Source of the DNA: a virus
Reading direction: 5' to 3' (one strand)
Length of the DNA stretch: 55,962 nucleotides
IMG/VR virus record: IMGVR_UViG_3300017971_000057
Part shown: positions 220-55,962 of the stretch, piece after piece
Numbering within the stretch: the stretch's first letter is position 1
How the letters are laid out: each line of letters opens with the position of its first letter
Translations under genes and position numbers: made by a program
The notes under the pieces: generated by a model
What the model was told of the DNA's origin: nothing
The model's input: the letters and a program-made list of their open reading frames with translations, nothing else
Database searches by the model: none

Positions 220-409
220 CATCGGGCGCAATGCCGAGGATCGCGATCGCGCAGAGGCGATCTTGAATAGCGCGGATGGCAGCGCGATGCTCAGGTTGTT
301 GCGCGATCAAACCAAAGTGCTCGTGTTGCACGTGCGCGTGGCAAACCAAGAACGGCGCGCCGCGTGGGAAGCAGAGCACACTGACGAATGGGAGGCAGAA
401 TCAGAATGA
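35..409 (+). CDS. cas11: Cas11-like small subunit of a type IV-B effector (124 aa)
   Basis: GTG 35 is the first possible start in this frame, with aaagga 7 nt upstream. The protein is small and helix-prone (MDETKEQAIELLAILWRG...) and sits in the slot between csf1 and csf2. Its stop TGA 407-409 overlaps the csf2 ATG 406 (ATGA). The call rests on position and composition. Confidence 0.55.
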   Translation: MDETKEQAIELLAILWRGIPADYKNRYRMNIWQQFEDQLRSAAYTSNLDRCVSSLCQKLSCDIGRNAEDRDRAEAILNSADGSAMLRLLRDQTKVLVLHVRVANQERRAAWEAEHTDEWEAESE

Positions 410-1380
410 AAACCTACGTGTTTGAAGGCACAATGACGGCATTGACGAGCATCAGCCATATCGGCGACACGTTCGGTGTCAACGCGCGTTTGCGGCGCGA
501 AAAGATCGTCCAGCCAGACGGGAGCGTGGAAGAGATCCCAGTCATCAGCGGCAATGCCTTGCGCGGCATCTTGCGCGACCGGGGGATGCTGCATATGACG
601 CGGCAGCTTGGCTATGGCGAACCAGGCGAAGATGGCGTGCCTATTGGCATGTCGCTGGCCGCGTTCTACTTTTTGTTTTCCGGCGGCGCGCTGACCAAAG
701 ATGCCGGGCGCGGGCTGGACATCGATCTGGCGCGGCAGTGGCGTGAGCTGATCCCGCTTGTCGCGCTGTTTGGCGGCGCGATGGGCAACCAGATCATGCC
801 GGGCAAACTCAAGATTGGCAAGGCGATCCCGATCTGTAACGAGACAGCGCACATCTTGCCGGAGCGGTACGCGCAAGGCGAGATCAAGTCGGTGTGGGAT
901 TTTTGCCAAGAGGAAGCGTATACGCGGCGCGATGACGAAAAGAATGAGAACCTGCGCCAATTGATCGCGCCTGACGTTCGCGCTCTTTTGGAGGCCAGAG
1001 CCAGCATAGAACGGCAAAAGAGTGGCACAAAAGAGGATGTGGTGGTCGAGACCGGCCAGAAGCAGCAGATGCGCTACTTTGTCGAGACGCTGGCGGCAGG
1101 CACACCGCTCTTTTGGGATTTGACCCTGGACGATGCTACAGATCTCGAGTTTGAGGCGCTGGCCGTGACCCTGGCCGAGTTTGGCCGGCAGCCGTACATT
1201 GGTGGCAAGAGCGGCGTTGGACACGGCAAGGTTGCGATCCGATTTGATCAATGGATCGAGATCAACCCGCGCCTCGCGCCGGATGGCCGCGAGGTTGATC
1301 TGCCGCTTGGGTCGCGCTATATGGAGCACATCCAAGAGCACGGCGACGACATCCGGGGGCTGATCGATGGCCTATCGTGA
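406..1380 (+). CDS. csf2: Csf2 (Cas7-family RAMP backbone subunit, type IV)
   Basis: GGAGG 391-395 lies upstream of ATG 406. Motifs: VISGNALRGILRDRG, LFGGAMG, and the C-terminal glycine-rich loop YIGGKSGVGHGKV. Confidence 0.85.
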   Translation: MKTYVFEGTMTALTSISHIGDTFGVNARLRREKIVQPDGSVEEIPVISGNALRGILRDRGMLHMTRQLGYGEPGEDGVPIGMSLAAFYFLFSGGALTKDAGRGLDIDLARQWRELIPLVALFGGAMGNQIMPGKLKIGKAIPICNETAHILPERYAQGEIKSVWDFCQEEAYTRRDDEKNENLRQLIAPDVRALLEARASIERQKSGTKEDVVVETGQKQQMRYFVETLAAGTPLFWDLTLDDATDLEFEALAVTLAEFGRQPYIGGKSGVGHGKVAIRFDQWIEINPRLAPDGREVDLPLGSRYMEHIQEHGDDIRGLIDGLS

Positions 1381-2949: not shown

Positions 2950-3161
2950 TTACTGCAGATGGATCGAAAACTTGGAGCTATTCGCAAATCACTCGGAGCA
3001 CGTTCGGGCATTTAACCATCGGACCGGAGAGCCGCGTGATTCTACAGAACAGAGTGGCGCCTAAAGCGCCAAGGAGGGTATAGGGCATCGGTTTAGATGT
3101 ATACTTCCGTCGTGATATTGCCAATATCCTGCGCTCTACGGCCTGCGCCAATGACGGCGCG

Positions 3162-3392
3162 ATGAGCCTGGCCATAGAGTTGGTTGGAGATGTAAGCGGA
3201 CCTGACACGGTAGCTGACCCGGAGAAGTTGGCCCAAGCCTACCAGGCAGGTGTGCGAAATGCCTTGCTGTCGGTCGGGCTTGCGTTCGGGTTGGAGCCGG
3301 TGGGACCATCTATTCAGCGCAAACCAAGCGTGACGCCCGGGCTGGCTGGGCTGGCTGGGCTTTTGTGGGCAGAGATACCCCATGAGCGATGA
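3162..3392 (+). CDS. Hypothetical protein (76 aa)
   Basis: ORF track. The frame is open and protein-like back to 3084, and AAGGAGG sits at 3071-3077, so a non-canonical upstream start is possible. Confidence 0.4.
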   Translation: MSLAIELVGDVSGPDTVADPEKLAQAYQAGVRNALLSVGLAFGLEPVGPSIQRKPSVTPGLAGLAGLLWAEIPHER

Positions 3393-3682
3393 TGGATACT
3401 GAGTCAATGGGCGGGCAATGTCGGCTCATCCACGCCCGCACGATGGGAAACTATATCGACGAGCGCCTCCCCAGGCGCGTAACCGAAGTCGATACATGCC
3501 CTATCTGCGGCGGCATCAAATCGAAGGCCGCCGATCACTGCGTCGCCTGCAACGGTCGCGCCAGGGAGACAGAAGACGACCTGATCCCGCCGGAGGCTAT
3601 CGACGCAGTGATCGGCGATGGGTGGTCCTGCTCGGAATCGGGTTCACCCCGGACGAGCTGCGAGAAACGTTCGAGTGGTTGA
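3389..3682 (+). CDS. Zinc-ribbon protein (CPICGG...CVACNG); its 3' part looks out of frame
   Basis: ORF track. There is a CxxC-x10-CxxC motif. After ...AIDAVIGDGW the sequence turns junk-like, while the -1 frame (3622-3765) becomes protein-like. Confidence 0.45.
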   Translation: MMDTESMGGQCRLIHARTMGNYIDERLPRRVTEVDTCPICGGIKSKAADHCVACNGRARETEDDLIPPEAIDAVIGDGWSCSESGSPRTSCEKRSSG

Positions 3683-3765
3683 CCTGGGAAGCCATCTATC
3701 GCGCGATTGAGGTGATCAGAGGATGGCCGGAGTCTGAAACGGACGGACTCGAGGAGTGGGGATAG

Positions 3766-4029
3766 ATGGCCAATAGATTCTTGATTCGGATAGACGAGGC
3801 CAACGCTCGGCATCGGCATTTTACGGTCTTTGCCAATGGGGCTAATTGTGGGCATTTGATTATGACCAATACAGAGTTTTGGAGTTTCGCCCGTGGTTTG
3901 ATGGCGGGGCATAAACCTGGTAGTGTAGATATTGAATTACTCCCCCACTCCCCCGCGTCGGGGTCGCGTCCAGAGGACCCCCGTGGGGACGAACGGACGG
4001 GGGACGAACGGACAGAGAATGGAGGATAG
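3766..4029 (+). CDS. Hypothetical protein (87 aa)
   Basis: ORF track; ATG directly follows the stop of the previous frame. Confidence 0.5.
   Translation: MANRFLIRIDEANARHRHFTVFANGANCGHLIMTNTEFWSFARGLMAGHKPGSVDIELLPHSPASGSRPEDPRGDERTGDERTENGG
3985..4014 (+). repeat. 15-bp tandem duplication (GGGGACGAACGGACN x2) encoding GDERT-GDERT
   Basis: Read directly from the sequence. Confidence 0.9.
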
Positions 4030-4030
4030 A

Positions 4031-4126
4031 ATGAGCACATTTGATGATGATGGGCTACGATCCAGAGGAGGATACGCTGTACGTCAATCCCAAGTACACG
4101 ACCTGGATGGAGGCGGTATAGAATGA
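4031..4126 (+). CDS. Small ORF (31 aa, MSTFDDDGLRSRGGYAVRQSQVHDLDGGGIE)
   Basis: GGAGG 4021-4025 upstream of ATG 4031. Stop overlaps ATG 4123 (ATGA). Confidence 0.3.
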   Translation: MSTFDDDGLRSRGGYAVRQSQVHDLDGGGIE

Positions 4127-4353
4127 GATGTACAGTGTGTGGCGCAAAAGTGCCCGATGATCCGATCTACACTCGGACACGGGGACAGGTTGGTCTCTGT
4201 GATGAGTGCGCGGCTGACTTGGTGGACAGTCTACCCCCTCCAGAGCCGACTTGTGAGGGGTGTTCGCAATTCACAGGTCTCGAATGTCTGCTCGGTGGCC
4301 GGCTTCAGGCTGGCTGCCAGGGGCATCACGTTACCTCTGACGGCTCCCCTTGA
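4123..4353 (+). CDS. Zinc-ribbon protein (76 aa; CTVCG...CDEC)
   Basis: ORF track; translationally coupled to the upstream small ORF. Confidence 0.55.
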   Translation: MRCTVCGAKVPDDPIYTRTRGQVGLCDECAADLVDSLPPPEPTCEGCSQFTGLECLLGGRLQAGCQGHHVTSDGSP

Positions 4354-4379
4354 CATCTCCTTCCTTTCCGTGATATAAT
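4350..4379 (+). promoter_or_regulatory. Near-consensus sigma70-type promoter: TTGACA (4350-4355), 18-nt spacer, TGaTATAAT (-10 at 4374-4379)
   Basis: Hexamers read directly. An extended -10 TG is present. The -35 overlaps the stop codon of the last rightward early gene. Confidence 0.7.
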
Positions 4380-4385
4380 GACATC

Positions 4386-4566
4386 ACTAGCCGTCGTGAG
4401 ACGGCAGTTCTTCCATTCTCCTTTGGACAGCGCGGCGCATCATTGTCTCGTCGCCGGTCATCCGCCGCGCTGTCCTGCGGGCGGAGCATTGATAGTCATC
4501 ATAGACGCGCCACCAGACAATCAAACTGAGGCATCTACGGGCGGCACGGTTCACGTGCCGTTTTTG
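4386..4566 (+). ncRNA. Candidate ~180-nt structured transcript (late-operon leader or terminated small RNA)
   Basis: Bounded by the 4350 promoter and the 4542 terminator. Hairpins: CCGTC/GACGG at 4391-4404, and a perfect 13-bp stem GGACAGCGCGGCG (4425-4437) with CGCCGCGCTGTCC (4463-4475). The overlapping ORF 4378-4662 is compositionally implausible. Confidence 0.4.
4542..4566 (+). terminator. Intrinsic terminator (CGGCACG-gttca-CGTGCCG-TTTTTG)
   Basis: 7-bp GC-rich stem, 5-nt loop and T5 run, read directly. Confidence 0.7.
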
Positions 4567-4649
4567 CTATCCGGTGCCCGTCACTCTTTCCGAACTAGTG
4601 GCAATGGATCCATTCCCCCCCAGGGCATTCCCATTGTCACCAGTTCGGA

Positions 4650-4886
4650 GTGGGGGACGTGAGTGTGGAACCCGTCACGTTTTGGGCGATTGTCGGCAAG
4701 GTGCAAACGATGGCGGATGGGGGGATCCGTTTATACCTTGATCTGCCCGAGGACGCGATTGCGCAAGCCGCCGAGATGATGGCCTATAAGCGCGAGGGTA
4801 TCGTGCTGGATGTGACGTGCAAGCCACGAGGCGAGAATGAGCGAGACGAATCAGAGCGTGGAAATACACGAAAGTCAACTTACTGA
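4650..4886 (+). CDS. Hypothetical protein, first gene of the late operon
   Basis: ORF track; an alternative GTG start exists at 4662. Confidence 0.45.
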   Translation: MGDVSVEPVTFWAIVGKVQTMADGGIRLYLDLPEDAIAQAAEMMAYKREGIVLDVTCKPRGENERDESERGNTRKSTY

Positions 4887-5367
4887 GGAACTGACGGCGA
4901 TTGCCGAGCAGCTCACGGTGGATCAAATGCGGTTCGTCCAGGCGCGTCAAGAGCACAATACAGACAAGGCCGCTGCTGAGAGCTTGGAGATCAGCCCGGA
5001 CACCATCAAGTCGTGGAAACGCAAAGGCTACCCGATTGATAGGGCTTGCGAGTTGATGGCTCAGGATGGGCTGATATTCGCGGCCTCTGTTCGTCGCAAG
5101 AACCTCCTCAAGGCGATGCTAGTCAAGGTCGCGGGCCTGGACAGCGACGACGAACGACTGAGGCAAGCCGTCTCGACTGAAATCGTCGAATGGGAGATGG
5201 GCAAGGCTACGCAGACGCAACGCCACGAGGGCACCGGCGAAGGGGGCGCGATTGTCGTCCAGAATGTAGAGCTAACGGATGCTGAACGTAGAGACGCTCT
5301 TAAGGGAATGTTCGGACTATCAGCGGACGCTCACAGACCGGACGCTGATCGGGACGATCAACCCTGA
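4837..5367 (+). CDS. terS: Terminase small subunit (HTH)
   Basis: Sits directly upstream of terL. HTH-like LTVDQMRFVQARQEHNTDKAAAESLEISPDTIKSWKRKG. Confidence 0.6.
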   Translation: MSETNQSVEIHESQLTEELTAIAEQLTVDQMRFVQARQEHNTDKAAAESLEISPDTIKSWKRKGYPIDRACELMAQDGLIFAASVRRKNLLKAMLVKVAGLDSDDERLRQAVSTEIVEWEMGKATQTQRHEGTGEGGAIVVQNVELTDAERRDALKGMFGLSADAHRPDADRDDQP

Positions 5368-6628
5368 CCAGCACTATGCACCACGAGGCAATGCCGGGCG
5401 CGTCCTGTTCAACACGGATCGTGAGCTGGTCGTCTCGGGGCCAGCAGGGACCGGCAAATCGAGGGCGTGCCTGGAAAAGCTGCACTACTGCTGCAACACC
5501 TATCCCGGAACACGCGCGCTGATCGTGCGACAGACGCGCGCCAGCCTGAGCGAGACCGGCCTGGAAACGTTCGAGAACCACGTGCTAGGGCCCTTGCATC
5601 CGATGGCTCTGGACGGCCCCAAGCGGCCCTGGCGCTCCTCCTACCGCTACCCGAACGGCAGTCAGATCAACATCGGCGGGATGGACAAGCCGGCGCGCAT
5701 TTTGTCCAGCGAGTATGATCTGATCTACTGGCAACAGGCCGAAGAGGGCAGCCTGTGGGGCTACGAAACTTTGCTCACCCGCTTGCGGGGTCAGGGGATG
5801 CCCTTCCGGCAGATGCTTGCCGACTGCAACCCAGAGAGCCCGATGCACTGGCTCAAGCAGCGCTGTGACAAGGGGCAGGCGACGCTCCTGGAGACCCGGC
5901 ACACAGACAACCCGGTGCTTTGGGACAGCGCGCACGGCGAGTGGACCGAGTCCGGGGAAGAGTACATCGGCACGCTCGACCGGCTGACCGGGGCCCGCAA
6001 GCTGCGGTTGCGGTATGGCGTCTGGGTCGTGTCCGAGGGCGCGATCTACTCGCTCTTTGACGAGGAGCGGCACAAGGTGCGCGGGTTCAAGCCGCCGGCG
6101 CTCTGGCCAAGGATCGTCGCCATCGATCCGGTGGGCGCGATGATCGGAGCGCTCTGGATGGCGTTCGATCCGACGGCGCGGGTGCTGAACGTCTACCGGG
6201 AGTACCTGGAGCCCTATGGTGCCCCGACCGGGCAGCACGTCCGGAACATCTTGAGACTGAGCCAGGGCGAGACGGTCTTTGCCTGGGTCGGCGGCGGGCC
6301 TTCCGAGCGACAAGCGCGCACCGATTGGCAGGCGCACGGCATCCCCCTGGGCGAGCCTCCCAACATCGGGGTTTGGTCGCAGATTGACCGGGTGATCGAG
6401 CTGCTGCGTGATTTCAAGATCGTGATTCACGACACGTGCCCGCAGCTCTTGAGTGACGTGGGCAGCTATCGGCGCAAGGTGATCCACGGCCAGCCGACGG
6501 ACAACATAGAGGATAAGGACGTGTTTCACCTTGCGGACTGCCTACGCTATGGCGTCGCCTTTTTGGCTGAACCCCACGAGCGCGTACAAGTTGTCGACCG
6601 CCTGGCGTCCATCGGCGGGAATTGGTAG
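5279..6628 (+). CDS. terL: Terminase large subunit
   Basis: Walker A VVSGPAGTGKSRA, ATPase plus C-terminal nuclease-like region, ~450 aa. The start is uncertain because of an 88-nt overlap with terS. Confidence 0.9.
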   Translation: MLNVETLLRECSDYQRTLTDRTLIGTINPDQHYAPRGNAGRVLFNTDRELVVSGPAGTGKSRACLEKLHYCCNTYPGTRALIVRQTRASLSETGLETFENHVLGPLHPMALDGPKRPWRSSYRYPNGSQINIGGMDKPARILSSEYDLIYWQQAEEGSLWGYETLLTRLRGQGMPFRQMLADCNPESPMHWLKQRCDKGQATLLETRHTDNPVLWDSAHGEWTESGEEYIGTLDRLTGARKLRLRYGVWVVSEGAIYSLFDEERHKVRGFKPPALWPRIVAIDPVGAMIGALWMAFDPTARVLNVYREYLEPYGAPTGQHVRNILRLSQGETVFAWVGGGPSERQARTDWQAHGIPLGEPPNIGVWSQIDRVIELLRDFKIVIHDTCPQLLSDVGSYRRKVIHGQPTDNIEDKDVFHLADCLRYGVAFLAEPHERVQVVDRLASIGGNW

Positions 6629-38135: not shown

Positions 38136-39170
38136 ATGAACCTACCGGGCACCTCACCGCTCATCTATGGCTGCCACGAGCCGATGCCCAGGGACGTGAT
38201 GCCGCGCGGGTGGATTCTCTTCCTAGTCGAGGTGGGGGACAACGCAGAGCCACATCCAGGCAAAGACTACGGCGAGTGGGAGCGCGACGGCTACGGCATC
38301 ATCTGCCGCATCCAGTACCGCTGGGGCTACCAGGCCGGGACGCTGCCCCGCGCCGACAAGTTGGACGCCTACGTGCAGCGCGTGCGCACGCTGGTGCAGA
38401 ACTCCAAGTTTTGCCATAGGTGGATCATCGGCAACGAACCGAACCTGTCCATTGAACGTCCCGACGGCTGGAAGTTGTCGCCTGCCTACGTGGCGCTCTG
38501 CTACAACGAGTGCTGGGATGCGATTCACGCCTTGCCCGGCCACGAGTTCGACGAGGTGCTAGTGCCGCCCATCGGCCCCTGGAACGTGGAATCAGGACCA
38601 TGGATCGACTATTTCAAGCAGCTCGCCACCGACTGCGCGCACGTGGACGGGTTCGCCATCCACACCTACAGCCGCGGCCCGGACCCGGCCAGCATCACGT
38701 CTGAGGATCGCATGAGCGCGCCTTACCAGGCATACCACAACGGATTCCGCACCTACCGCGACTGGCTGGCGGCGGTGCCCGACAAGTACAAGGACCGTCC
38801 AGTCTACTTGACCGAGACGAACCAGAACGGCCCGTGGCTCGATCAGCGCAACGGGTGGATACCGGTGATGTACCAGGAGATCGACGGCTGGAACCAGAGC
38901 GGCAAGCAGGCCATTCGCTGCGCGTGCCTCTACCGCTGGCCGAAGTACGACCAGTACGCCATCGACGGCAAGGGGAACGTGATCGCGGACTTCCAGCAGG
39001 CGCAGCAAGCCGGGTATCGCTGGCCCACGGAACCGGAACCGCCCGAACCGCCTAATGACCTGGAGGCGCGGGTGACGGAACTGGAGGCACAGGTCGCGGG
39101 ACTGGGGCGCGGGCTGGCAGAGGTAGAGCGACGAATGGCGGCGGCGGGCGGAGCATTGAAAGGAGATTGA
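38136..39170 (+). CDS. Clan GH-A (TIM-barrel, GH5-like) glycoside hydrolase with C-terminal coiled coil; endolysin or depolymerase candidate
   Basis: AGGAGG 38126-38131 upstream of ATG 38136. WIIGNEPN (acid/base NEP) and VYLTETN (nucleophile E) motifs. Confidence 0.65.
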   Translation: MNLPGTSPLIYGCHEPMPRDVMPRGWILFLVEVGDNAEPHPGKDYGEWERDGYGIICRIQYRWGYQAGTLPRADKLDAYVQRVRTLVQNSKFCHRWIIGNEPNLSIERPDGWKLSPAYVALCYNECWDAIHALPGHEFDEVLVPPIGPWNVESGPWIDYFKQLATDCAHVDGFAIHTYSRGPDPASITSEDRMSAPYQAYHNGFRTYRDWLAAVPDKYKDRPVYLTETNQNGPWLDQRNGWIPVMYQEIDGWNQSGKQAIRCACLYRWPKYDQYAIDGKGNVIADFQQAQQAGYRWPTEPEPPEPPNDLEARVTELEAQVAGLGRGLAEVERRMAAAGGALKGD

Positions 39171-40491: not shown

Positions 40492-40719
40492 ATGACAATG
40501 AGTAGAGAGCTGTGGACGGTCATCATAGACGCGGTAGTATCCATCGCTATTATGGCCATCGGGATTTGGGTCGCGCCAGAGTACCGGGAGTTTGCGCTTG
40601 CTGTAGTCGCGGCGCTACAGGGCATTGCGGCGGCGCTGATCGTGCACTTTGTCGCAGAGCGCAAGGTTTCAGCGATGCGTATGGAGATTCAAAGCCTGCT
40701 GGGGCGACATCGTTCGTGA
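40492..40719 (+). CDS. Holin candidate (two TM helices, charged C-terminus)
   Basis: LWTVIIDAVVSIAIMAIGIWV and FALAVVAALQGIAAALIV; last gene of the late operon. Confidence 0.55.
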   Translation: MTMSRELWTVIIDAVVSIAIMAIGIWVAPEYREFALAVVAALQGIAAALIVHFVAERKVSAMRMEIQSLLGRHRS

Positions 40720-41660: not shown

Positions 41661-42698
41661 CTAGCCGACCAGGCCCTTCTCTGCCTGGTGTTCGACCATA
41701 TAGGCCCATAGATCGGCCCAGGTGGGTTGCGGATCGTTTGACCACAACCGATCTTTCACCTTGGATGCGTGCGCCGGGTTGTCGTAGCCCAGCTCGTCAA
41801 CGGCCCGCTTGAAGAATGTGGTCCAATCGTTCTCCTCTGGCGGGATCAAGAAGGGCGGCAAAACCTCCTCCTCGTCTCGCTTCTCCTCCAGAAATTCATC
41901 CCCCTCGATCAGTTCTCCGTCATAGTCCAGGTCCGGCGGCGGCTCGTCTTGCCCGTCGCCGACGATGATTACATTATCTGGCTCCCGATCCGGCTCAGGC
42001 AACGCGGGCACGTCCTCTTTCGTGCCCAAGAGCAGGCGGACCATTTCGTCCTCTTGCAGCTCCAGGTGCAGTAGGCTTTTCTCGACGGCGGCCCGCTTGC
42101 CCTTGATGGGCACGCCGATCCGCTCGGGTGCCCGCCAGAGCGTAAACGGCTTTTTGATCAGCGGCTCCCACTGCACGAGCTTGGCGCTCAGATTGGCGAT
42201 GTCGTTGATCGAGGTGGTCATCACCAGCACGATCCCGATGTGCCCAGCATACAAAAGTTCGGGCAGGACCACCTTGAGGCGTCCATAGTATCCGCACGGG
42301 CAGTCCGGGCATTTGTTGGCCACGTCCTTGAACTTGAAATCGCACGGCCTGCCGCGCTCGCTGTGGTAGTGCTTGTCGTCCTCGATCCAGTCGATCCAGT
42401 TCTCTCCATCACAACGCAGCTTACACAACCGATTCTGCCCGTATGCCTCGCGGTAGGAGCTAAACACCTGCTCCATCCGTGGAAACGGGAAGTAGACGGT
42501 CAGTCGCTCGGGTTGCTCACCGTAGGCCACCTTGAACGCCTGCGCGATGTCCTGCCGCCCGTTGTCCGGCACAAAGCGGAAATAGTCGAGGTCCGCGCCG
42601 GGCCGGTTGCCCGTCTTGCTGGCCCCTTTGCGCAAGCGCCCGATCTCCTTGAAGCGGGGGTCCACACTGTCTCTGTCTGAAAGTCCCTTGATTGGCAT
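41661..42698 (-). CDS. Conserved-looking early protein (345 aa), Cys-rich core plus acidic linker; possible DNA-binding/recombination function
   Basis: FKEIGRLRKG...LDYFRF, CPDCPCGYYG, acidic DEPPPDLDYDGELIEGDEFLEE. No family could be assigned by eye. Confidence 0.5.
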   Translation of the reverse strand: MPIKGLSDRDSVDPRFKEIGRLRKGASKTGNRPGADLDYFRFVPDNGRQDIAQAFKVAYGEQPERLTVYFPFPRMEQVFSSYREAYGQNRLCKLRCDGENWIDWIEDDKHYHSERGRPCDFKFKDVANKCPDCPCGYYGRLKVVLPELLYAGHIGIVLVMTTSINDIANLSAKLVQWEPLIKKPFTLWRAPERIGVPIKGKRAAVEKSLLHLELQEDEMVRLLLGTKEDVPALPEPDREPDNVIIVGDGQDEPPPDLDYDGELIEGDEFLEEKRDEEEVLPPFLIPPEENDWTTFFKRAVDELGYDNPAHASKVKDRLWSNDPQPTWADLWAYMVEHQAEKGLVG

Positions 42699-42713
42699 CT
42701 GTCCATTCTCCTT

Positions 42714-43169
42714 TTACAGTTCGTACAGGTCCGCGATAGCCTCATCGGCCCCGATGTCCAGTGGTTCGCTCTCTGGAAAGAGCGCGGCTAGCTCGTCGGG
42801 CAGGTTGTCGAGAATGAGATAGTATTCCCGGCATTGCTGATCATAGAGCCACTGAGGAATAAAATCCCGCGTGCCGCAGTCGGCGCACTCGGCCCAGTCC
42901 CGTGTCACGCCGTCGATCCGCTCGATGTGATGCACCGGCACGCCGCCGCATTCGCGGCACACGTACCACTGCTTGAGCGTGGCGTAGGTGACGAACTTTG
43001 CGCCGACAATACAGCCGCGGCGATCAAAGTCGCGGGTGTGCAAGTAGACGTCCATCAACCTTGATCCACCCATTCTCTGAGTTTTGCCCTCAGGAGCGCG
43101 CTGATATTCACGCTCTCCCGGCGGGCCTTGTCTATCACCCCCCGCGCCAAAGCTGATCATCTCGGTCAC
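42714..43169 (-). CDS. Hypothetical Cys-rich protein
   Basis: GTG 43169 overlaps the upstream TGA (GTGA). An alternative ATG is at 43055. Confidence 0.5.
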   Translation of the reverse strand: MTEMISFGAGGDRQGPPGEREYQRAPEGKTQRMGGSRLMDVYLHTRDFDRRGCIVGAKFVTYATLKQWYVCRECGGVPVHHIERIDGVTRDWAECADCGTRDFIPQWLYDQQCREYYLILDNLPDELAALFPESEPLDIGADEAIADLYEL

Positions 43170-47411: not shown

Positions 47412-48682
47412 GGTAGTGTGTCAAGTTCTGTGTAAAAGGGGTCCAGGCTAGGCAGCGGTCTTGGGCATCGATATCCTTCGGAACTTCATACTTCGTACGA
47501 TAGCATAGAACATTAACAAGCAACTGTTTTCGTTTCGGAAGGCCGTCGCCATCTTTTTGGTGCGTCGCTTGACCTCATTGTACAGCCGCTCGATGACGTT
47601 GGTCGTGCGGATCGTCTTCCAGTGCGCCTTGGGAAAGGCGTAGAAGGTCAGGCAAGCCTCCAAATCGCGTTTCAGGCAGGCCACGGCCGACGGGTAGATC
47701 GGTTCGAACTTCTCACAGAAGGCAGCTACCTCTTGGTCGGCCGCTTCACGATTCTTCTGGTAGAAGATCGCCCGCAGCTCCGCTCGCACGGGCTCGCGCT
47801 GCTTGTTGGGTACGTAGCCCAGCACATTATCCATCTTGTGCTTGACACACCGCTGTCGCGGGCTGTCCGGGAACTTGAGCTCCAGGGCATTGATCATGGC
47901 TTGGTTGCCATCGGTGATCCATAATCCGACCGTTTTGACCCCGCGGGTCTTGAGATCCTCCAAGAGATTCTCCCAGGCCGTTTGGTTCTCCCGATCGCCA
48001 ATGGTGAAGCCTAACACCTCTCGTTGGCCGGTGACGTTGATGCCGATCACGGCCAGGATGGGCATCTTGTGACCTTCACCATCGTAGATTACCGTAAAGT
48101 AGGTCCCATCGGCAAAGGCGTATTCGTAGTGCTCTTCGAGTGGTCGCGTCTTCCAGGCCTCATACTCTCCTTCCAGGGTGTGGAACACCCGAGACACGGT
48201 GGACGGGCTGGGCTTGGAGCCTGTCAAGGATTCGACCACCTCGCCGGCCTTGCGGGTGCTGACGCCGCCAACGAACATATCACCGATGGCGTTGTCCAAC
48301 TCGGCCCGGCGGCGCTTGTACTTCTCAAAGACCTGGGTCTGATGTCCATTGCGCGTACGCGGCACCGACAGGTCTTCGAGCAGACCGACTGTCGTATCTA
48401 GATCGCGTGTGTAATATCCATTTCGATAATCGCGCCGCTCAGGTGTGCGCTCGTAGGGCAAGGCCCCGACCAGGCCGCTGACCTCTTCCTCCAGGATCGT
48501 GACCAGCGTCAACCGCACGGCCATACGGATCTGTTCCTGGAGCAAGGACTGGAAATCGTTTTGACTCAACGCTTCAACTGTAGTATTCTTCTGTCTGGGA
48601 GCCATGGTGTCCTCCTTGGTTAGTTTTGCCGCTACCAAGGATACCTGGTTCCCACTTTTTACACAAAAATCAGTATACTACC
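47412..48682 (-). mobile_element. IS256-family insertion sequence (1271 bp) with ~37-bp imperfect terminal inverted repeats
   Basis: Ends GGTAGTGTGTCAAGTTCTGTGTAAAAGGGGTCCAGG and (reverse complement) GGTAGTATACTGATTTTTGTGTAAAAAGTGGGAACCAGG, a single Mutator-type transposase gene, and an 8-bp TSD. Confidence 0.9.
47448..48605 (-). CDS. IS256-family (Mutator-type) transposase
   Basis: Family-typical blocks [62 protein letters not shown] 6 nt upstream of ATG 48605. Confidence 0.9.
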
Positions 48683-49336: not shown

Positions 49337-49356
49337 GTATTCTCCTTCTGAAAATG

Positions 49357-49445
49357 AAAAACGCCCGCTTGTGGGTATCCTGTGGCCTGAAGCGGTTCCC
49401 TCACACACTAAGGGTAGGCGACAGGACACCCACAAAAGGGCGTTT
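49357..49445 (-). terminator. Long (~24 bp paired) hairpin ending GGGCGUUUUU: intrinsic terminator/attenuator 10 nt upstream of the next RBS
   Basis: On the minus strand, AAACGCCCUUUUGUGGGUGUCCUGU pairs with ACAGGAUACCCACAAGCGGGCGUUU, followed by a U5 run. Confidence 0.6.
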
Positions 49446-49502
49446 GCCTCGTGTGTGACTTGCCCCCGCTACAGGGCTGCGTTTCTTTTACTCACGCGCC
49501 TT

Positions 49503-49531
49503 CATTGTACCAGATCTGGGCGGCTGTGTCA
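49503..49531 (-). promoter_or_regulatory. Near-consensus promoter on the minus strand: TTGACA (49531-49526), 17 nt, TGgTACAAT (-10 at 49508-49503)
   Basis: Hexamers read directly from the reverse complement. Confidence 0.65.
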
Positions 49532-49594
49532 AGCCCCTCTTGCGATCTCCCGCACACGAAATGCACACCACCTCGCCCTCGGGCGGTTCGAACC

Positions 49595-50228: not shown

Positions 50229-50578
50229 TGGTCCTCCTTGTGTCTGTCGGTTGAATCATCACCGCCGTTGAGTTGCCAGCCCGTTGCGGCGAGATCGGCG
50301 CGCCTCATTTTTGTCGAGTGCCGCCTGGGCACCCACCCAGAACTACTATATCCGCGCCTTTGTGTGCGCCTTTCGGCTGTGGCTGGGGCCTCCTGTCGTC
50401 CATTCACTTGTAAGACTGTCTGGCGATCGGCTTTTTCGGTCTCCCGCTTGCCTGCGCTGTATCCGGCGCAGTAGTCGCGCATCCGCTCGATGGTGTCCTG
50501 GCCGTAGTCCGGCCCGGCACCGAGAAGGGCATCCGCATAGCCGCGTGCGTACTCGTCGCTGTACTGTCGGTCGCTCAC
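50225..50578 (-). CDS. Hypothetical protein (the C-terminal half is low-complexity and the extent is uncertain)
   Basis: ORF track. Confidence 0.35.
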   Translation of the reverse strand: MSDRQYSDEYARGYADALLGAGPDYGQDTIERMRDYCAGYSAGKRETEKADRQTVLQVNGRQEAPATAERRTQRRGYSSSGWVPRRHSTKMRRADLAATGWQLNGGDDSTDRHKEDQ

Positions 50579-50790
50579 GGGCGGCCTCCATAGCGGGCAT
50601 CCTCGACGGTGGCTCGCTCGCCCTGGGCGCCGTCTAGGGCCTGCTCGGCACGCACCAGCCAGCGGGGGCGGTACAGGTCGCGCAGGTGGGCCGTGGTGCT
50701 GTCGTCCAGATAGGCGATCCGCCCCTCGGTGCGCACCACGCGCACGAGTGTTTTGGATGTGGTCTCATAGTAAGCGACGTTTGCGTCCAT
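50575..50790 (-). CDS. Hypothetical protein (71 aa)
   Basis: ORF track; AAGGAG upstream. Confidence 0.5.
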   Translation of the reverse strand: MDANVAYYETTSKTLVRVVRTEGRIAYLDDSTTAHLRDLYRPRWLVRAEQALDGAQGERATVEDARYGGRP

Positions 50791-50823
50791 CAGTCCATTC
50801 TCCTTGTGTCTATTAGTTTCAGC

Positions 50824-50958: not shown

Positions 50959-51237
50959 CTAACCCAAATCTACCTCGCGCACGCGGAACGTGCGCGTGCA
51001 TGCTCCCGCCTCGTCCATCTCTTCCGGGGAGAGATCTTTCCCTCGCTGTTCTGGCCGGAGAAAGGGGAGATCGATAGTGGTTACGCTGGCGGCACAGGAG
51101 GCCAGCGCCAATGGTAGGTGGCCGATAACGTCCTCCCCGCGAATATCGTCTACGGTCGCGTGAACAATCACGCGGCCCTCGATGCCGCGCTGCTTGAGCC
51201 ATTCGATGGCTCCGGCGTGTCTTGAGATAATCAACAT
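50959..51237 (-). CDS. csx16: Csx16-like (Cas_VVA1548 family) small protein
   Basis: 92 aa. MLIISRHAGAIEWLKQRGI...IRGEDVIGHLPLALA...LPFLRPEQRGKDLSPEEMDEAGA...FRV matches the remembered family pattern (RHxGAxEW, GDxVIGxLP, RGxxLSxEE). Confidence 0.6.
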   Translation of the reverse strand: MLIISRHAGAIEWLKQRGIEGRVIVHATVDDIRGEDVIGHLPLALASCAASVTTIDLPFLRPEQRGKDLSPEEMDEAGACTRTFRVREVDLG

Positions 51238-51280: not shown

Positions 51281-51325
51281 CGCCGGGCTATTCTACAGCC
51301 CGCCCGGCTGGGCGGTGGGGGCTAG
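51281..51325. repeat. Direct repeat copy B (29 bp exact, ~45 bp imperfect), starting at the stop codon of the pentapeptide gene
   Basis: cgccgggctattctacagcccgcccggct is identical at 51281-51309 and 52191-52219. It contains the hairpin GCCGGGC/GCCCGGC. Confidence 0.9.
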
Positions 51326-52056
51326 TCCTTCGTGATGGAGCGCAGATGATAGCGCTCCACCCCTGTCCAGAGATTGGCCTCCCCGGCCAGGAGGCCCTGG
51401 ATTTCTTTTGCGCCGCCGCACTGGACGCGGCAGATGTGGTAGAGCAACTGGCGAAACCGATCCAGGTCAATGCCCACGTCAAATGAGCCGCTCTGGAGCG
51501 GCCAATTTACAAAGTCCAGGCGGGCTCCGCTCAAATCGGCCTCGCGCAGGTCAGTCCCGCGCAAGTCGGCCTGGCAGAGGCCGACCCCGTACAAGTCGGC
51601 CCAGCGCAGGTCGGCCCTGCGCAGGTCGGCCTCGGTCAAATCGGCCTCGGCCATGCTGGCCCTGAGCAGGTTGGCCCTGCTCAGGTTGGCCTCGTGCAGG
51701 TTGGCCCTGCTCAGGTCGGCCTGGCGCAGGTCAGCCCCGCTCAGGTCAGCCTCGCTCAGATCGGCACCGCGCAGGTCAGCCCCGCGCAGGTCGGCCCTGG
51801 TCAGGTCGGCCCTGGTCAGGTCTGCCTCGCCCAGATCGGCACCGCGCAGGTCGACCTCGGCCAAGCTGGCACCGCTCAGGTTGGCCTCGTACAGGCTGGC
51901 CCCGCTCAAGTCGGCCTCGCTCAGGTTGGCCCCACGCAGGTTAGCTCTGTTCAGCCAAGCTCCGCTCAAGTCGGCCTTGCTAAGGTCAATCTCGCTCAAG
52001 TTGACCTTGCTCAAGTCGGCCCTGCTCAGATCCGCATCGCTCAAGTACTTTATCAT
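51322..52056 (-). CDS. Pentapeptide-repeat protein (about 35 tandem A(D/N)LxG-type repeats plus a ~55-aa C-terminal domain)
   Basis: ADLSRADLSKVNLSEIDLSKADLSGAWLNRANLRGANLSEADLSG... read from the ORF track. Confidence 0.9.
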   Translation of the reverse strand: MIKYLSDADLSRADLSKVNLSEIDLSKADLSGAWLNRANLRGANLSEADLSGASLYEANLSGASLAEVDLRGADLGEADLTRADLTRADLRGADLRGADLSEADLSGADLRQADLSRANLHEANLSRANLLRASMAEADLTEADLRRADLRWADLYGVGLCQADLRGTDLREADLSGARLDFVNWPLQSGSFDVGIDLDRFRQLLYHICRVQCGGAKEIQGLLAGEANLWTGVERYHLRSITKD

Positions 52057-52649: not shown

Positions 52650-52775
52650 TGTATCCTCCGCTCCGTTTTGGTGTCGGCTCCAGCTTGAGCCGCTATGTGG
52701 CCTGCCATCGTCAGCACCGGGCGGCCAGTCCCGGCGGACCGGGCGTATGCCCGGTTTCGGCTACTCGGAGGAGAA

Positions 52776-52853: not shown

Positions 52854-52882
52854 AGTATATCATATTCGGCACACTTTGTCAA
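52854..52882 (-). promoter_or_regulatory. Leftward near-consensus promoter: TTGACA (52882-52877), 17 nt, TGaTATACT (-10 at 52859-52854)
   Basis: Read directly from the reverse complement. Confidence 0.65.
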
Positions 52883-52896
52883 TACCCAATTTCCCC

Positions 52897-52939
52897 ATTC
52901 TAGAATTTCTAGGAATTCTTTTACCTTGAATTTTACCTT
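52897..52939. promoter_or_regulatory. Operator-like repeats between the divergent promoters
   Basis: Perfect palindrome ATTCTAGAAT 52897-52906, adjacent TTCTAGGAATTC, then TTTTACCTT (52919-27) gaa TTTTACCTT (52931-39). Confidence 0.45.
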
Positions 52940-52945
52940 TGGCCC

Positions 52946-52974
52946 TTGACGCAGCCTAGCGGGTGTGATAGAAT
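52946..52974 (+). promoter_or_regulatory. Rightward promoter: TTGACG (52946-52951), 17 nt, TGaTAGAAT (-10 at 52969-52974)
   Basis: Read directly. Confidence 0.65.
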
Positions 52975-55260: not shown

Positions 55261-55962
55261 ATGATATGCCGGATCTGTGGCAACAGGGCCGTGAAAGGCC
55301 AGCCGTTCGATGAGTGGGTACGCCCCACATTTACGGATTGGGATAAGCTCGTCCCTGGTGACGCCATTTGCTCTGATTGCTTATTTTGGTTTGAGGAGCA
55401 GTCGGAGGAATTGGCGCGGCGAGTAGGGAAGGAAAAGCCGCAACGGATGCGGAATTATAGCCACTTTATTGTTGCGGGAGAGTGGATACCTCTCTCGAAA
55501 GGCGACAAAGGCAGAATGCAAGTTTTGCTACTTGGTGAGCCTTTCCCCGAACTGGCCGCTATCGCAATGAGCGGCCAAAAGCACATCGCGTTTCGGGCGC
55601 AGCGCAACCCACCCGACGCTAAAGCGGGTTGGGTGCAAGTGGAGGAGCAGGCGCTCTACCTGAACCCGGAGGAACTGCGCTCGCTGCTGTGTGCTGTGGA
55701 GGCGTTGTACACGGGATTCAGCAAGTCAGAGATTGAGACGGGCGACTATGCCGGGTATCGTATCCTGAAGTATGGCCTGGAAGAGTGGCAGGCGCTAGAG
55801 ACCGAGGTCGCGCCGCAGCGCGGCAGTCTGCTCTTCGCCCTCGCCCTTTTCCTGGCACAGAAAGGACAGGCGGGTGGACGAAACAAAAGAGCAGGCTATA
55901 GAGCTGTTGGCGATTCTATGGCGGGGGATCCCGGCGGACTACAAGAACCGCTACCGGATGAA
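55261..55962 (+). CDS. csf1: Csf1 (type IV large subunit, zinc-ribbon N-terminus); continues across the circular junction to 219 (265 aa in total)
   Basis: MICRICGN...GDAICSDCLFWF, with CxxC at residues 3-6 and 37-40. No stop before the window end. Lies directly upstream of cas11-csf2-csf3. Confidence 0.7.
   Translation, partial: MICRICGNRAVKGQPFDEWVRPTFTDWDKLVPGDAICSDCLFWFEEQSEELARRVGKEKPQRMRNYSHFIVAGEWIPLSKGDKGRMQVLLLGEPFPELAAIAMSGQKHIAFRAQRNPPDAKAGWVQVEEQALYLNPEELRSLLCAVEALYTGFSKSEIETGDYAGYRILKYGLEEWQALETEVAPQRGSLLFALALFLAQKGQAGGRNKRAGYRAVGDSMAGDPGGLQEPLPDE
55840..55962. repeat. Terminal overlap copy 2 (identical to 1-123)
   Basis: See copy 1. Confidence 0.95.

Follow-up and report, generated by a model that had tools for sequence, protein, structure and literature searches.

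A self-contained promoter-RNA-terminator unit of lambda-like layout between the early and late genes of a phage carrying type IV-B genes

Lambda-style control of late genes is taken here to mean that a constitutive promoter gives a short RNA ending at a terminator, which polymerase passes only conditionally, as in the PR'-6S-tR' unit of phage lambda, whose 6S RNA measures 194 nt. A constitutively made PR'-tR' RNA can also double as a regulator, the precedent being StxS of the Shiga-toxin phages (PMC7547250). In type IV-B systems, the RNA in Csf complexes is 55-60 nt long; which RNA these complexes carry naturally is not known (PMC7937560). The segment described here is best explained as a transcription unit of its own, placed where the early genes of a phage give way to the late ones, and we compared it with each of these systems.

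The window, that is, the whole stretch of viral DNA that was analysed (55,962 nt), belongs to a phage whose host is probably a member of the Chloroflexota, probably of the Anaerolineae. The host assignment went through an IS256-family transposase. The source samples correspond to ENA assemblies ERZ27256783 and ERZ27256798 and to run SRR6963591. The replication genes are carried by the - strand. On the + strand, promoter P52946 is followed by an xis-like HTH gene, by csf1, cas11, csf2, csf3, and cysH, by small ORFs, and then by the unit, at which this rightward early operon terminates. The type IV-B genes present are cas11, csf2, csf3, and a cysH-like gene, with a csf1-like end at 55285-55962. 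Past the unit, the morphogenesis operon with terS, terL, portal, head, and tail genes reaches ~41.6 kb, and the unit occupies the border between the early/accessory operon, including the type IV-B cassette, and the late genes (Table 1). The description of the unit as non-coding, self-contained, and placed directly 5' of the morphogenesis operon was borne out.

Table 1 Coordinates of the unit, its neighbours, and its candidate targets in the window
Feature	Position	Strand	Remarks
Last gene of the rightward early/accessory operon	4123..4353	+	ORF, translation; 76-aa
Consensus sigma-70/sigma-A promoter, extended -10 (TTGACA-18-TGaTATAAT)	4350..4379	+	sequence
Putative start and 5'-terminal hairpin	4386..4408	+	sequence, fold
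CU-rich stretch AGUUCUUCCAUUCUCCUUU, mostly unpaired	4406..4424	+	centroid fold
Long hairpin	4425..4475	+	GC-rich perfect 13-bp stem GGACAGCGCGGCG/CGCCGCGCUGUCC, imperfect inward continuation
3' linker, loosely structured	4476..4539	+	
Intrinsic terminator CGGCACG-GUUCA-CGUGCCG + U5	4540..4566	+	-16.2 kcal/mol
Conserved leader hairpin of the late operon	4579..4659	+	~29-nt arms, C7-containing loop
First late gene, conserved 75-aa protein	4659..4886	+	start GTG 4659 or 4665
terS-like HTH gene	4837-5367	+	after the first late gene
terL	5279-6628	+	then portal, head, and tail genes
Candidate target 1: ribosome-binding site AAAGGAGAAUGGACAGAUG of the Gp3-like (PF18897) gene 41661-42698	42696..42714	-	
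Candidate target 2: ribosome-binding site CAAGGAGAAUGGACUGAUG of the 71-aa ORF (50575-50790)	50788..50806	-	

The gene that closes the early operon encodes a zinc-ribbon-like protein with three CxxC pairs, and its TGA stop codon lies inside the -35 hexamer of the unit's promoter. It was called in two other assemblies; its product had no homologs among 5.8 billion proteins, gave weak zinc-ribbon matches alone in Pfam and no match in a PDB search, and is a candidate regulator by position alone. ORF 3389-3682, for which homologs were sought in order to locate other early/late junctions, was an orphan too. The region 2950-4650 had no detectable relatives, its DNA being unmatched in related loci and in phage and plasmid collections.

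The preliminary description had called the promoter the best in the window, and it is the sole 12/12 site on both strands of the 56 kb, with a TG extension in addition. The -35 hexamer TTGACA (4350-4355) is separated by an 18-nt spacer, which contains the TG (4371-4372), from the -10 hexamer TATAAT (4374-4379); a 12/12 site with TG is expected by chance ~0.003 times per 112 kb, as estimated from base composition. The three other strong promoters of the genome (49532 and 52882 on the - strand, 52946 on the + strand) are likewise TG-extended. The heptamer TGACATC occurs twice, at 4351-4357 and 4379-4385. Judged from its distance to the -10 (7 nt), the transcription start would be A4386. The + strand of the late region contained no further site of at least 10/12, nor one of 9/12 with a TG extension, and 4350 is the sole sigma-70-like + strand promoter found ahead of 37 kb of late genes. 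Since no sigma-70-like promoter was found between the terminator and the first late gene, late transcription probably must pass the terminator.

As the preliminary description had proposed, the RNA appears structured: the segment 4386-4566 folds at -71.8 kcal/mol (z = -2.8), and none of 200 shuffles was as stable. The small 5' hairpin is present, although it spans 4390-4405 (GCCGTC-GTGA-GACGGC) and not the 4391-4404 first given; its 6-bp stem GCCGUC/GACGGC carries the GNRA loop GUGA and is lengthened by ACU/AGU. It is a single-copy element in a genome that contains no CRISPR array. A role for this hairpin as a CRISPR-repeat mimic (RNA anti-CRISPR) was considered but is not favoured, the window having neither a second copy nor an array. 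The CU-rich stretch that follows is unpaired in the centroid fold, with unpaired probabilities of ~0.4-0.8. The 13-bp stem is perfect as claimed, 4425-4437 pairing with 4463-4475; lengthened to 16 nt, it is still 94% complementary, and it ranks among the two longest spaced inverted repeats in the 56 kb. Its interpretation as a serine-integrase attP is not favoured, with no integrase among the scanned proteins and the repeat inside the transcription unit. Within the linker, 4477-4492 is identical in the same sense to 39144-39159 and 4495-4509 to 40519-40533, both in the late region (blastn-short E 0.004 and 0.014). Rfam 15 covariance models returned nothing at the gathering threshold for 4350-4660 (put RNAs have no Rfam model), and at E values up to 10 gave far-sub-threshold matches, mostly to eukaryotic miRNA or archaeal/eukaryotic snoRNA models.

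The terminator was recovered exactly as claimed, with its stem at 4542-4548/4554-4560, the loop GTTCA, and T5 at 4561-4565, and it was the sole + strand site to pass a strict scan of the whole window, which reported it at 4541-4569. It is one-directional and lies ~180 nt from the putative start and ~160 nt 3' of the promoter. Folds of the RNA that include the 3' arm and folds that omit it both lack any alternative pairing in competition with its stem. Because the U-tract consists of five residues alone, termination could be leaky and unregulated. The late operon, which had been placed about 90 nt further on, opens with a gene that begins 93-99 nt past the terminator. Beyond the coordinates of the preliminary description and 13 nt past the terminator starts a hairpin (4579-4659), in which the GGAG/GGGGGA ribosome-binding site and GTG 4659 are covered by the 3' arm. 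Homologous hairpins occur in the related loci L042 and L011/L095. In its 19-bp core helix (4589-4607 with 4631-4649), both partners have changed in four of the 19 pairs, and pairing is kept in 94.5% of cells, compared to 24-53% in slid controls; from this alignment, the leader hairpin is conserved and supported by covariation.

Relatives were gathered via TerL and via the conserved 75-aa protein, and the unit was absent from all of the 40+ loci found in these two ways. Its sole further copies are 100% identical, three independent assemblies sharing the sequence, and for this reason neither a covariation test nor a covariance model of the RNA could be made. Among 99 fetched loci, in IMG/VR, and in collections of phages and plasmids, the RNA had no relative: DNA similarity searches of 50,697 phage and 72,556 plasmid records gave one chance 35-nt match, and exact-pattern scans of IMG/VR with the 13-bp stem, the 5' hairpin, and the seed gave nothing. 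The nearest relatives have the conserved leader hairpin alone, and in most late-module relatives the upstream genes directly adjoin the first late gene. Homology with the relatives starts only at ~4575-4660, which places the unit exactly at the module border. The unit is an orphan of known design and occurs in this phage alone.

We favour, at a probability of roughly 0.45, the interpretation of the unit as a late-gene gate resembling lambda PR'-6S-tR'. Host RNA polymerase with the primary sigma factor would start at ~4386 from the consensus extended -10 promoter, and most transcripts would end at the intrinsic terminator (3' end ~4563-4566), giving an abundant non-coding RNA of ~180 nt. The terminator would stop transcripts from 4350 and early rightward transcripts from P52946 alike, and the 37-kb morphogenesis operon would be transcribed only upon read-through by the polymerase. 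Read-through would be turned on by antitermination, through a phage-encoded or host function that depends on expression of the early operons, and the terminated RNA may in addition act in trans, like StxS in Stx phages. What the sequence itself shows is the elements, their uniqueness in the genome, the non-coding character of the region, its place at the border, and the lack of a sigma-70-like promoter past the terminator; the start site, the efficiency of termination, the regulation of read-through, and the identity of the antiterminator are the parts that we infer. As all late-module relatives are without the unit, the gate is not ancestral to late control in this group.

The likeness to lambda suggested in the preliminary description holds for the layout but not for the regulatory parts, neither a Q- or N-like protein nor a pause element having been found. 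No such protein had been recognised before, and none emerged when the early proteins were scanned against Pfam and PHROGs. An Arg-rich ORF at 3418-3765 was rejected as a source of an N-like protein: up to ~3570 its frame overlaps the better-scoring frame of ORF 3389-3682, to which codon scores assign 3400-3570. A -10-like pause element is missing from +1 to +15: no hexamer in ACTAGCCGTCGTGAGACGGC, which begins at +1, combines an A in position 2 with a T in position 6, and the only promoter-like element nearby is the -35-like repeat TGACATC at 4379-4385. The gate is favoured because a second promoter, P49532(-), also runs into a hairpin (~37 bp) with a U-tract, which ends 6 nt before the ribosome-binding site of the next gene (z = -5); a comparable terminator is missing at both of the divergent early promoters. 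Two leader terminators fit a cascade based on terminator read-through. Unrelated leaders composed of promoter, hairpin, terminator, and gene were also found in other type IV-B phage contigs (L043 13920-14136 and L057 12825-12996), and the promoter hexamers were the only motif common to the 4350 and 49532 leaders, or to these and the L043/L057 leaders.

Two other roles were considered for the RNA. It may be the product of a moron-like, stand-alone sRNA gene, the exposed UCCAUUCUCCUUU of which pairs with early leftward Shine-Dalgarno regions and represses translation, its position being incidental; we regard this as possible though doubtful, and it could hold alongside the gate model, as a further role of the RNA. 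An abundant small RNA had been offered as an alternative before, and it is plausible in view of the 5' hairpin, the exposed CU-rich stretch, and the terminator; the anatomy is classic for an sRNA (own promoter, Rho-independent terminator, non-coding), and the two end structures would stabilise the RNA. The stretch 4406-4424 is anti-Shine-Dalgarno-like and a candidate seed of a trans-acting RNA, with complementarity of 13/13 to 42702-42714(-) and 12/12 to 50794-50805(-), both on ribosome-binding sites. The seed-target duplex reaches -24.5 kcal/mol against a genome-wide mean of -9.5 (sd 3.7), two matches with at most one mismatch were observed besides the RNA's own locus where dinucleotide shuffles predict 0.04, and the four best ribosome-binding-site matches all belong to - strand early genes and have AAGGAGAAU in common. 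The unit is missing from relatives, as an accessory gene would be. However, for the whole 181-nt RNA a complementary match of 12-13 nt arises by chance in 57-93% of random segments, and given the anti-Shine-Dalgarno core, a ribosome-binding-site match of at least 12 nt is expected at ~5% by our rough estimate; the two target sites, being almost the same sequence, do not count as independent. Seed and structure are not conserved, only 100% identical copies existing, it is not obvious what the phage would gain by constitutively repressing genes of the replication module, and late expression would still require passage of the terminator. The further proposal that the ~180-nt RNA is a guide, scaffold, or cargo partner of the array-less type IV-B Csf complex draws on the proximity of cas11-csf2-csf3-cysH, which lie on the same strand 1.4-4.4 kb upstream, and on the cassette of contig L045, where a promoter-like site and a terminated unit of ~80 nt follow ~100 nt after cysH. 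It fared poorly in comparison with 22 viral contigs carrying a related cassette (Csf2 54-90% identical), none of which has a relative of the RNA and in all of which the non-coding flanks of the cassette are unmatched; in tblastx with five contigs (L043-L046 and L052), homology ends at cysH, and at most other cassette loci the promoter after cysH just drives the next gene. The 5' hairpin has no repeat or second copy in the genome or in IMG/VR, and the RNA is about three times as long as the RNA in Csf complexes (PMC7937560). Since the cassette moves between phages without a linked RNA gene, type IV-B complexes appear to have no dedicated guide beside their genes. We therefore hold such a partnership to be very unlikely, and judge in the same way the idea that this lineage took the RNA over from an independent transcription unit as a dedicated Csf partner; were it true, a natural RNA ligand would for the first time be known for a type IV-B system.

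The remaining explanations concern the locus itself. Two stem-loops directly after the 4350 promoter, in a unit that precedes the operon with no intervening promoter, could form a cis-acting leader that decides read-through, either as a put-like, protein-free element or as a riboswitch or attenuator sensing a ligand or factor. This is quite improbable: no Rfam family was matched even at E values up to 10, the terminator stem lacks the competing pairing, a constitutive put-like element would leave the terminator pointless, and the unit is not conserved in relatives. Hardly less improbable is a recombination scar at a mosaic junction, in which a fortuitous promoter and hairpin would have no selected function beyond insulating two modules. 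It would agree with the absence of detectable relatives for 2950-4650 and the orphan status of both ORFs searched (4123-4353 and 3389-3682), with the two exact 15-16-nt late-region copies in the 3' half, which keep their original reading frames, and with the recurrence of the terminator stem CGGCACG/CGTGCCG in L042, there with a 27-nt loop and no U-tract. Against it stand the chance expectation of the TG-extended 12/12 promoter given above, the pairing of this promoter with the sole strong + strand terminator, the TG extension in common with three other strong promoters, and the identity of the sequence across three independent assemblies. Finally, we give next to no credence to ORF 4378-4662 as a genuine 94-aa protein, the possibility that the preliminary description had set against the RNA, and found no coding signal. 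Its 94 codons are free of stops, and both late-region identities stay in their source frames, but its GC content by codon position is flat (0.60/0.58/0.57 versus 0.61/0.47/0.76 in phage genes), and every frame of the region has a codon score below zero. The start codon ATG falls on the -10, 5' of the putative start, without a ribosome-binding site; the frame would cross the terminator and the conserved leader hairpin, and was left uncalled in 3/3 assemblies. An exhaustive HMMER search returned two giant repetitive proteins alone, with 10-20 stretches matched.

If the gate model is true, lambda-style late control would have had an independent origin in a phage whose host phylum is poorly studied, with an antitermination factor unrecognised by current profiles, and two leader terminators in one genome would provide a direct handle for finding it. 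The negative result for type IV-B is useful in itself and argues against a dedicated guide adjoining the cassette genes.

Compared with the lambda PR'-6S-tR'-Q region, the unit shares a constitutive-looking consensus promoter that closes the early rightward operon and is abutted by a small gene, a short non-coding transcript (~180 nt here) that stops at an intrinsic terminator, and a very long late operon directly downstream with no promoter of its own. Unlike lambda, the phage has neither a Q-family protein nor a -10-like pause-inducing element, its late operon opens with packaging genes rather than lysis genes, its host is probably a member of the Chloroflexota and not an enterobacterium, and its closest relatives are without the unit. 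In HK022 put and lambda N/nut, stem-loops likewise lie directly 3' of the promoter, and hairpin 1 (4390-4405) has a GNRA loop, as a boxB fold does, and is followed by a CU-rich stretch. In contrast to N/nut, there is no boxA (CGCUCUUUA-like), the CU-rich stretch being UUCUCCUUU, nor a supported arginine-rich N-like protein, and the second leader (49532) shares no motif. As with StxS, a terminated late-promoter by-product could regulate in trans, the RNA being complementary to two ribosome-binding sites; the two are unrelated in sequence, and in the present case the candidate targets belong to the early genes of the phage itself. The unit also resembles phage morons: it is self-contained, brings both promoter and terminator, occupies a module junction, and is missing from relatives, but its cargo is a non-coding RNA rather than a protein gene.

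The window corresponds to nearly all of the metagenomic contig k141_806710 (ENA ERZ27256783; 55,980 bp). When both strands were scanned, the promoter of the unit was the sole 12/12 match in the window, where about 0.003 such sites would be expected by chance (an estimate from base composition). Other sites matching at least 10/12 positions with a TG extension were found only at 52882(-), 52946(+), and 49532(-); all three are intergenic, so the phage clearly relies on extended -10 promoters recognised by the host's primary sigma factor. Judging from the promoter, transcription of the unit should start near A4386. The heptamer TGACATC of the -35 element (4351-4357) is repeated directly past the -10 hexamer (4379-4385); recurrence within 40 nt has an estimated chance of roughly 0.2%, and the repeat could serve protein binding or act as a -35-like element where transcription starts.

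The 181-nt RNA folds with an energy of -71.8 kcal/mol (z = -2.8), and its GC-stem hairpin is among the two longest spaced inverted repeats in the 56 kb. A strict scan of both strands identified the terminator as the only one on the (+) strand of the window. The promoter, hairpins, and terminator reported upstream of the late operon in the preliminary description were confirmed in the sequence. A riboswitch-like reading was set aside, since no fold competing with the terminator was found.

Coordinates of the promoter-RNA-terminator unit, of the leader hairpin counterparts in related late-module loci, and of the second leader
Feature	Position	Strand	Description
Promoter	4350-4379	+	TTGACA, 18-nt spacer with TGa at its end, TATAAT
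5' hairpin	4390-4405	+	6 bp, GUGA loop
CU-rich stretch	4406-4424	+	mostly unpaired
GC-stem hairpin	4425-4475	+	perfect 13-bp GC stem
3' linker	between hairpin 4425-4475 and terminator	+	loose fold
Terminator	4540-4566	+	7 perfect pairs, GTTCA loop, U5, -16.2 kcal/mol
Leader hairpin counterpart, L042	about 250-330		
Leader hairpin counterpart, L011	about 370-450		
Leader hairpin counterparts, L095 and L096			
Second promoter and leader	49345-49532	-	TTGACA-17-TGgTACAAT, then ~150-nt leader

The open frame across the unit, ORF 4378-4662, showed flat GC across codon positions and a negative codon score in all frames. The frame opens with an ATG that shares bases with the -10 hexamer, 5' of the inferred start site; it would run across the terminator, and the ~180-nt RNA itself contains no ATG. 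The ORF was called in none of three assemblies, and when 1.84 billion representative proteins were searched exhaustively, the only hits were two giant repetitive proteins, matched in 10-20 stretches. With no codon signal, an ATG at the -10, no gene call, and only repetitive-protein matches, a real gene was rejected; the region was upheld as non-coding, and the codon and search tests lent no support to a protein encoded there.

Two linker segments are exact, same-sense copies of late-region sequence: 4477-4492 equals 39144-39159 (16 nt, just 5' of a ribosome-binding site; blastn-short E 0.004), and 4495-4509 equals 40519-40533 (15 nt, codons 8-12 of a small hydrophobic ORF; E 0.014). Two such matches occur in 1.2% of random 181-nt segments, which is statistically unusual, and the source reading frame of both is preserved inside ORF 4378-4662. 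These identities may be a trace of the unit's assembly by recombination.

The same phage is present in two further assemblies, with 100% identity across 4100-4700. Relatives of the late module, retrieved through TerL and the 75-aa protein, comprised 37 protein homologs and more than 40 loci. Translated searches placed the start of homology no earlier than ~4655-4680 in all loci compared; no similarity to 4350-4570, consensus promoter, or strong upstream terminator was found among these relatives, and in most of the distant ones the first late gene abuts or overlaps an upstream gene. A long hairpin, at 4579-4659 in the window, is also present in L042 and in L011/L095/L096, the two closest lineages. 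When its 19-bp core helix was aligned across three sequences, 4 of 19 pairs showed compensatory change on both sides and 94.5% of cells were paired, compared with 24-53% in slid controls. It belongs to the 5' UTR of the first late gene and has a C7 loop; its 3' arm, in the window, extends over both GTG 4659 and the ribosome-binding site. In each of the three lineages this C-rich loop complements the downstream G-rich ribosome-binding site, suggestive of control at translation. We conclude that the late operon carries this hairpin as a truly conserved leader element, with the unit as a lineage-specific addition just 5' of it. In another related locus, L098, the terS-like gene is separated from terL by an Endonuclease VII-domain gene (886-1836), an insertion absent from the window.

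Divergent promoters at 52854-52974 begin one leftward and one rightward operon. The spacer between them (52890-52945) contains palindromes of the TTCTAGAA type in repeated copies (TTCTAGAATTTCTAGGAATTC), which are likely operators bound by a repressor or Cro-like protein. The leftward leader, from promoter 52882-52854(-) to the first gene (ATG 52649), contains a type II hammerhead ribozyme (52696-52762(-); RF02276, 52.9 bits with a gathering score of 37, E 4e-8); self-cleavage of the early leftward transcript within its 5' UTR is therefore expected. The leftward operon encodes a 244-aa pentapeptide-repeat protein (51322-52056(-), with a 15-nt tandem array at 51523-52029), the adjoining Csx16-like protein (50959-51237(-); Pfam Cas_VVA1548, E 2e-17), an IS256/Mutator-family transposase inserted into the replication module (47448-48638(-)), a replication initiator, a DnaB-like helicase, a primase, and a Gp3-like protein. 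The first two genes could serve counter-defence. The closest genomic relatives of the transposase (63-89% amino acid identity) are all from Anaerolineae or Ktedonobacter, so the host is probably a member of the Chloroflexota.

The rightward operon starts with an xis-like HTH gene and unknown genes and continues across the contig ends through csf1, cas11, csf2, csf3, and a cysH-like gene to four small orphan ORFs, the last ending at 4353. No homologs of the upstream genes 4123-4353 and 3389-3682 were found. Near 3570 the coding signal changes frame: ORF 3389-3682 carries it before this point and the 3' part of ORF 3418-3765 after it. Gene callers of different assemblies picked different frames; the genes could overlap, or a frameshift or an assembly error could account for this. 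Past the unit follow the conserved 75-aa protein, terS-like, terL, portal, head protease/capsid, tape measure, and more genes to ~41.6 kb.

The terminator separates all recognisable rightward promoters from the essential late genes, which span 37 kb. Downstream of it no sigma-70-like promoter was found, nor any late-region (+) strand promoter of at least 10/12, or of 9/12 with a TG extension, and late expression thus probably requires terminator read-through. A second promoter of this genome, 49532(-), is followed by a leader in which a ~37-bp hairpin with a U-tract (z = -5) ends 6 nt short of a 76-aa ORF's ribosome-binding site. This leader shows weak, reciprocal similarity (nhmmer E 0.02-0.04) to a promoter-leader-terminator at 13920-14136 of L043, an otherwise unrelated phage contig with a type IV-B cassette, and the two may form a small leader-RNA family. 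No comparable terminator follows the two divergent early promoters, a pattern that fits a read-through cascade in which an early product would license read-through at 49532 and 4350.

The proposed likeness to lambda PR'-6S-tR' is supported by the layout but lacks its key component: no antiterminator profile matched among the early proteins scanned. No pause element was found in the unit and no motif common to the 4350 and 49532 leaders; the suggested put-type RNA was not supported. The terminated RNA might also act in trans as an sRNA, a lead rather than a result and compatible with a lambda-like gate. A precedent for an sRNA derived from a terminated PR' transcript is StxS (PMC7547250). The exposed stretch UCCAUUCUCCUUU can pair without mismatch with AAAGGAGAAUGGA, a sequence spanning the Shine-Dalgarno region of the Gp3-like gene (ATG 42698, - strand); a 71-aa ORF (ATG 50790, - strand) has a 12/12 match in the equivalent place. 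Shuffles predict 0.04 matches. However, 12-13-nt matches are common by chance for the whole 181-nt RNA, the match probability given an anti-SD core is an estimated ~5%, and the two target sites are near-identical to each other.

A role as cargo or guide of the type IV-B complex, whose natural RNA is still unknown (PMC7937560), had also been put forward. The complete array-less cassette (csf1, cas11, csf2, csf3, cysH-like; window 55285-55962 and 35-2949) has relatives in 22 IMG/VR viral contigs (L043-L064; Csf2 identity 54-90%). Five of them (L043-L046, L052) were compared by tblastx, and their homology to the window goes no further than the cassette borders, ending at cysH, so the cassette appears to move as one unit among otherwise unrelated phages. 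Neither nhmmer nor blastn found relatives of the RNA in the 22 contigs, the non-coding cassette flanks matched in none, and in several loci a promoter directly past cysH merely drives the next gene. Only proximity ties the RNA to the cassette, and the type IV-B reading is not supported.

The lambda-like reading is the one best supported by layout, albeit without an antiterminator, with a trans-acting sRNA as a compatible rival; the put-type, type IV-B, and protein-coding readings are unsupported. The unit is an orphan example of a known design, of value mainly for gaining access to transcription control in the phages of Chloroflexota.
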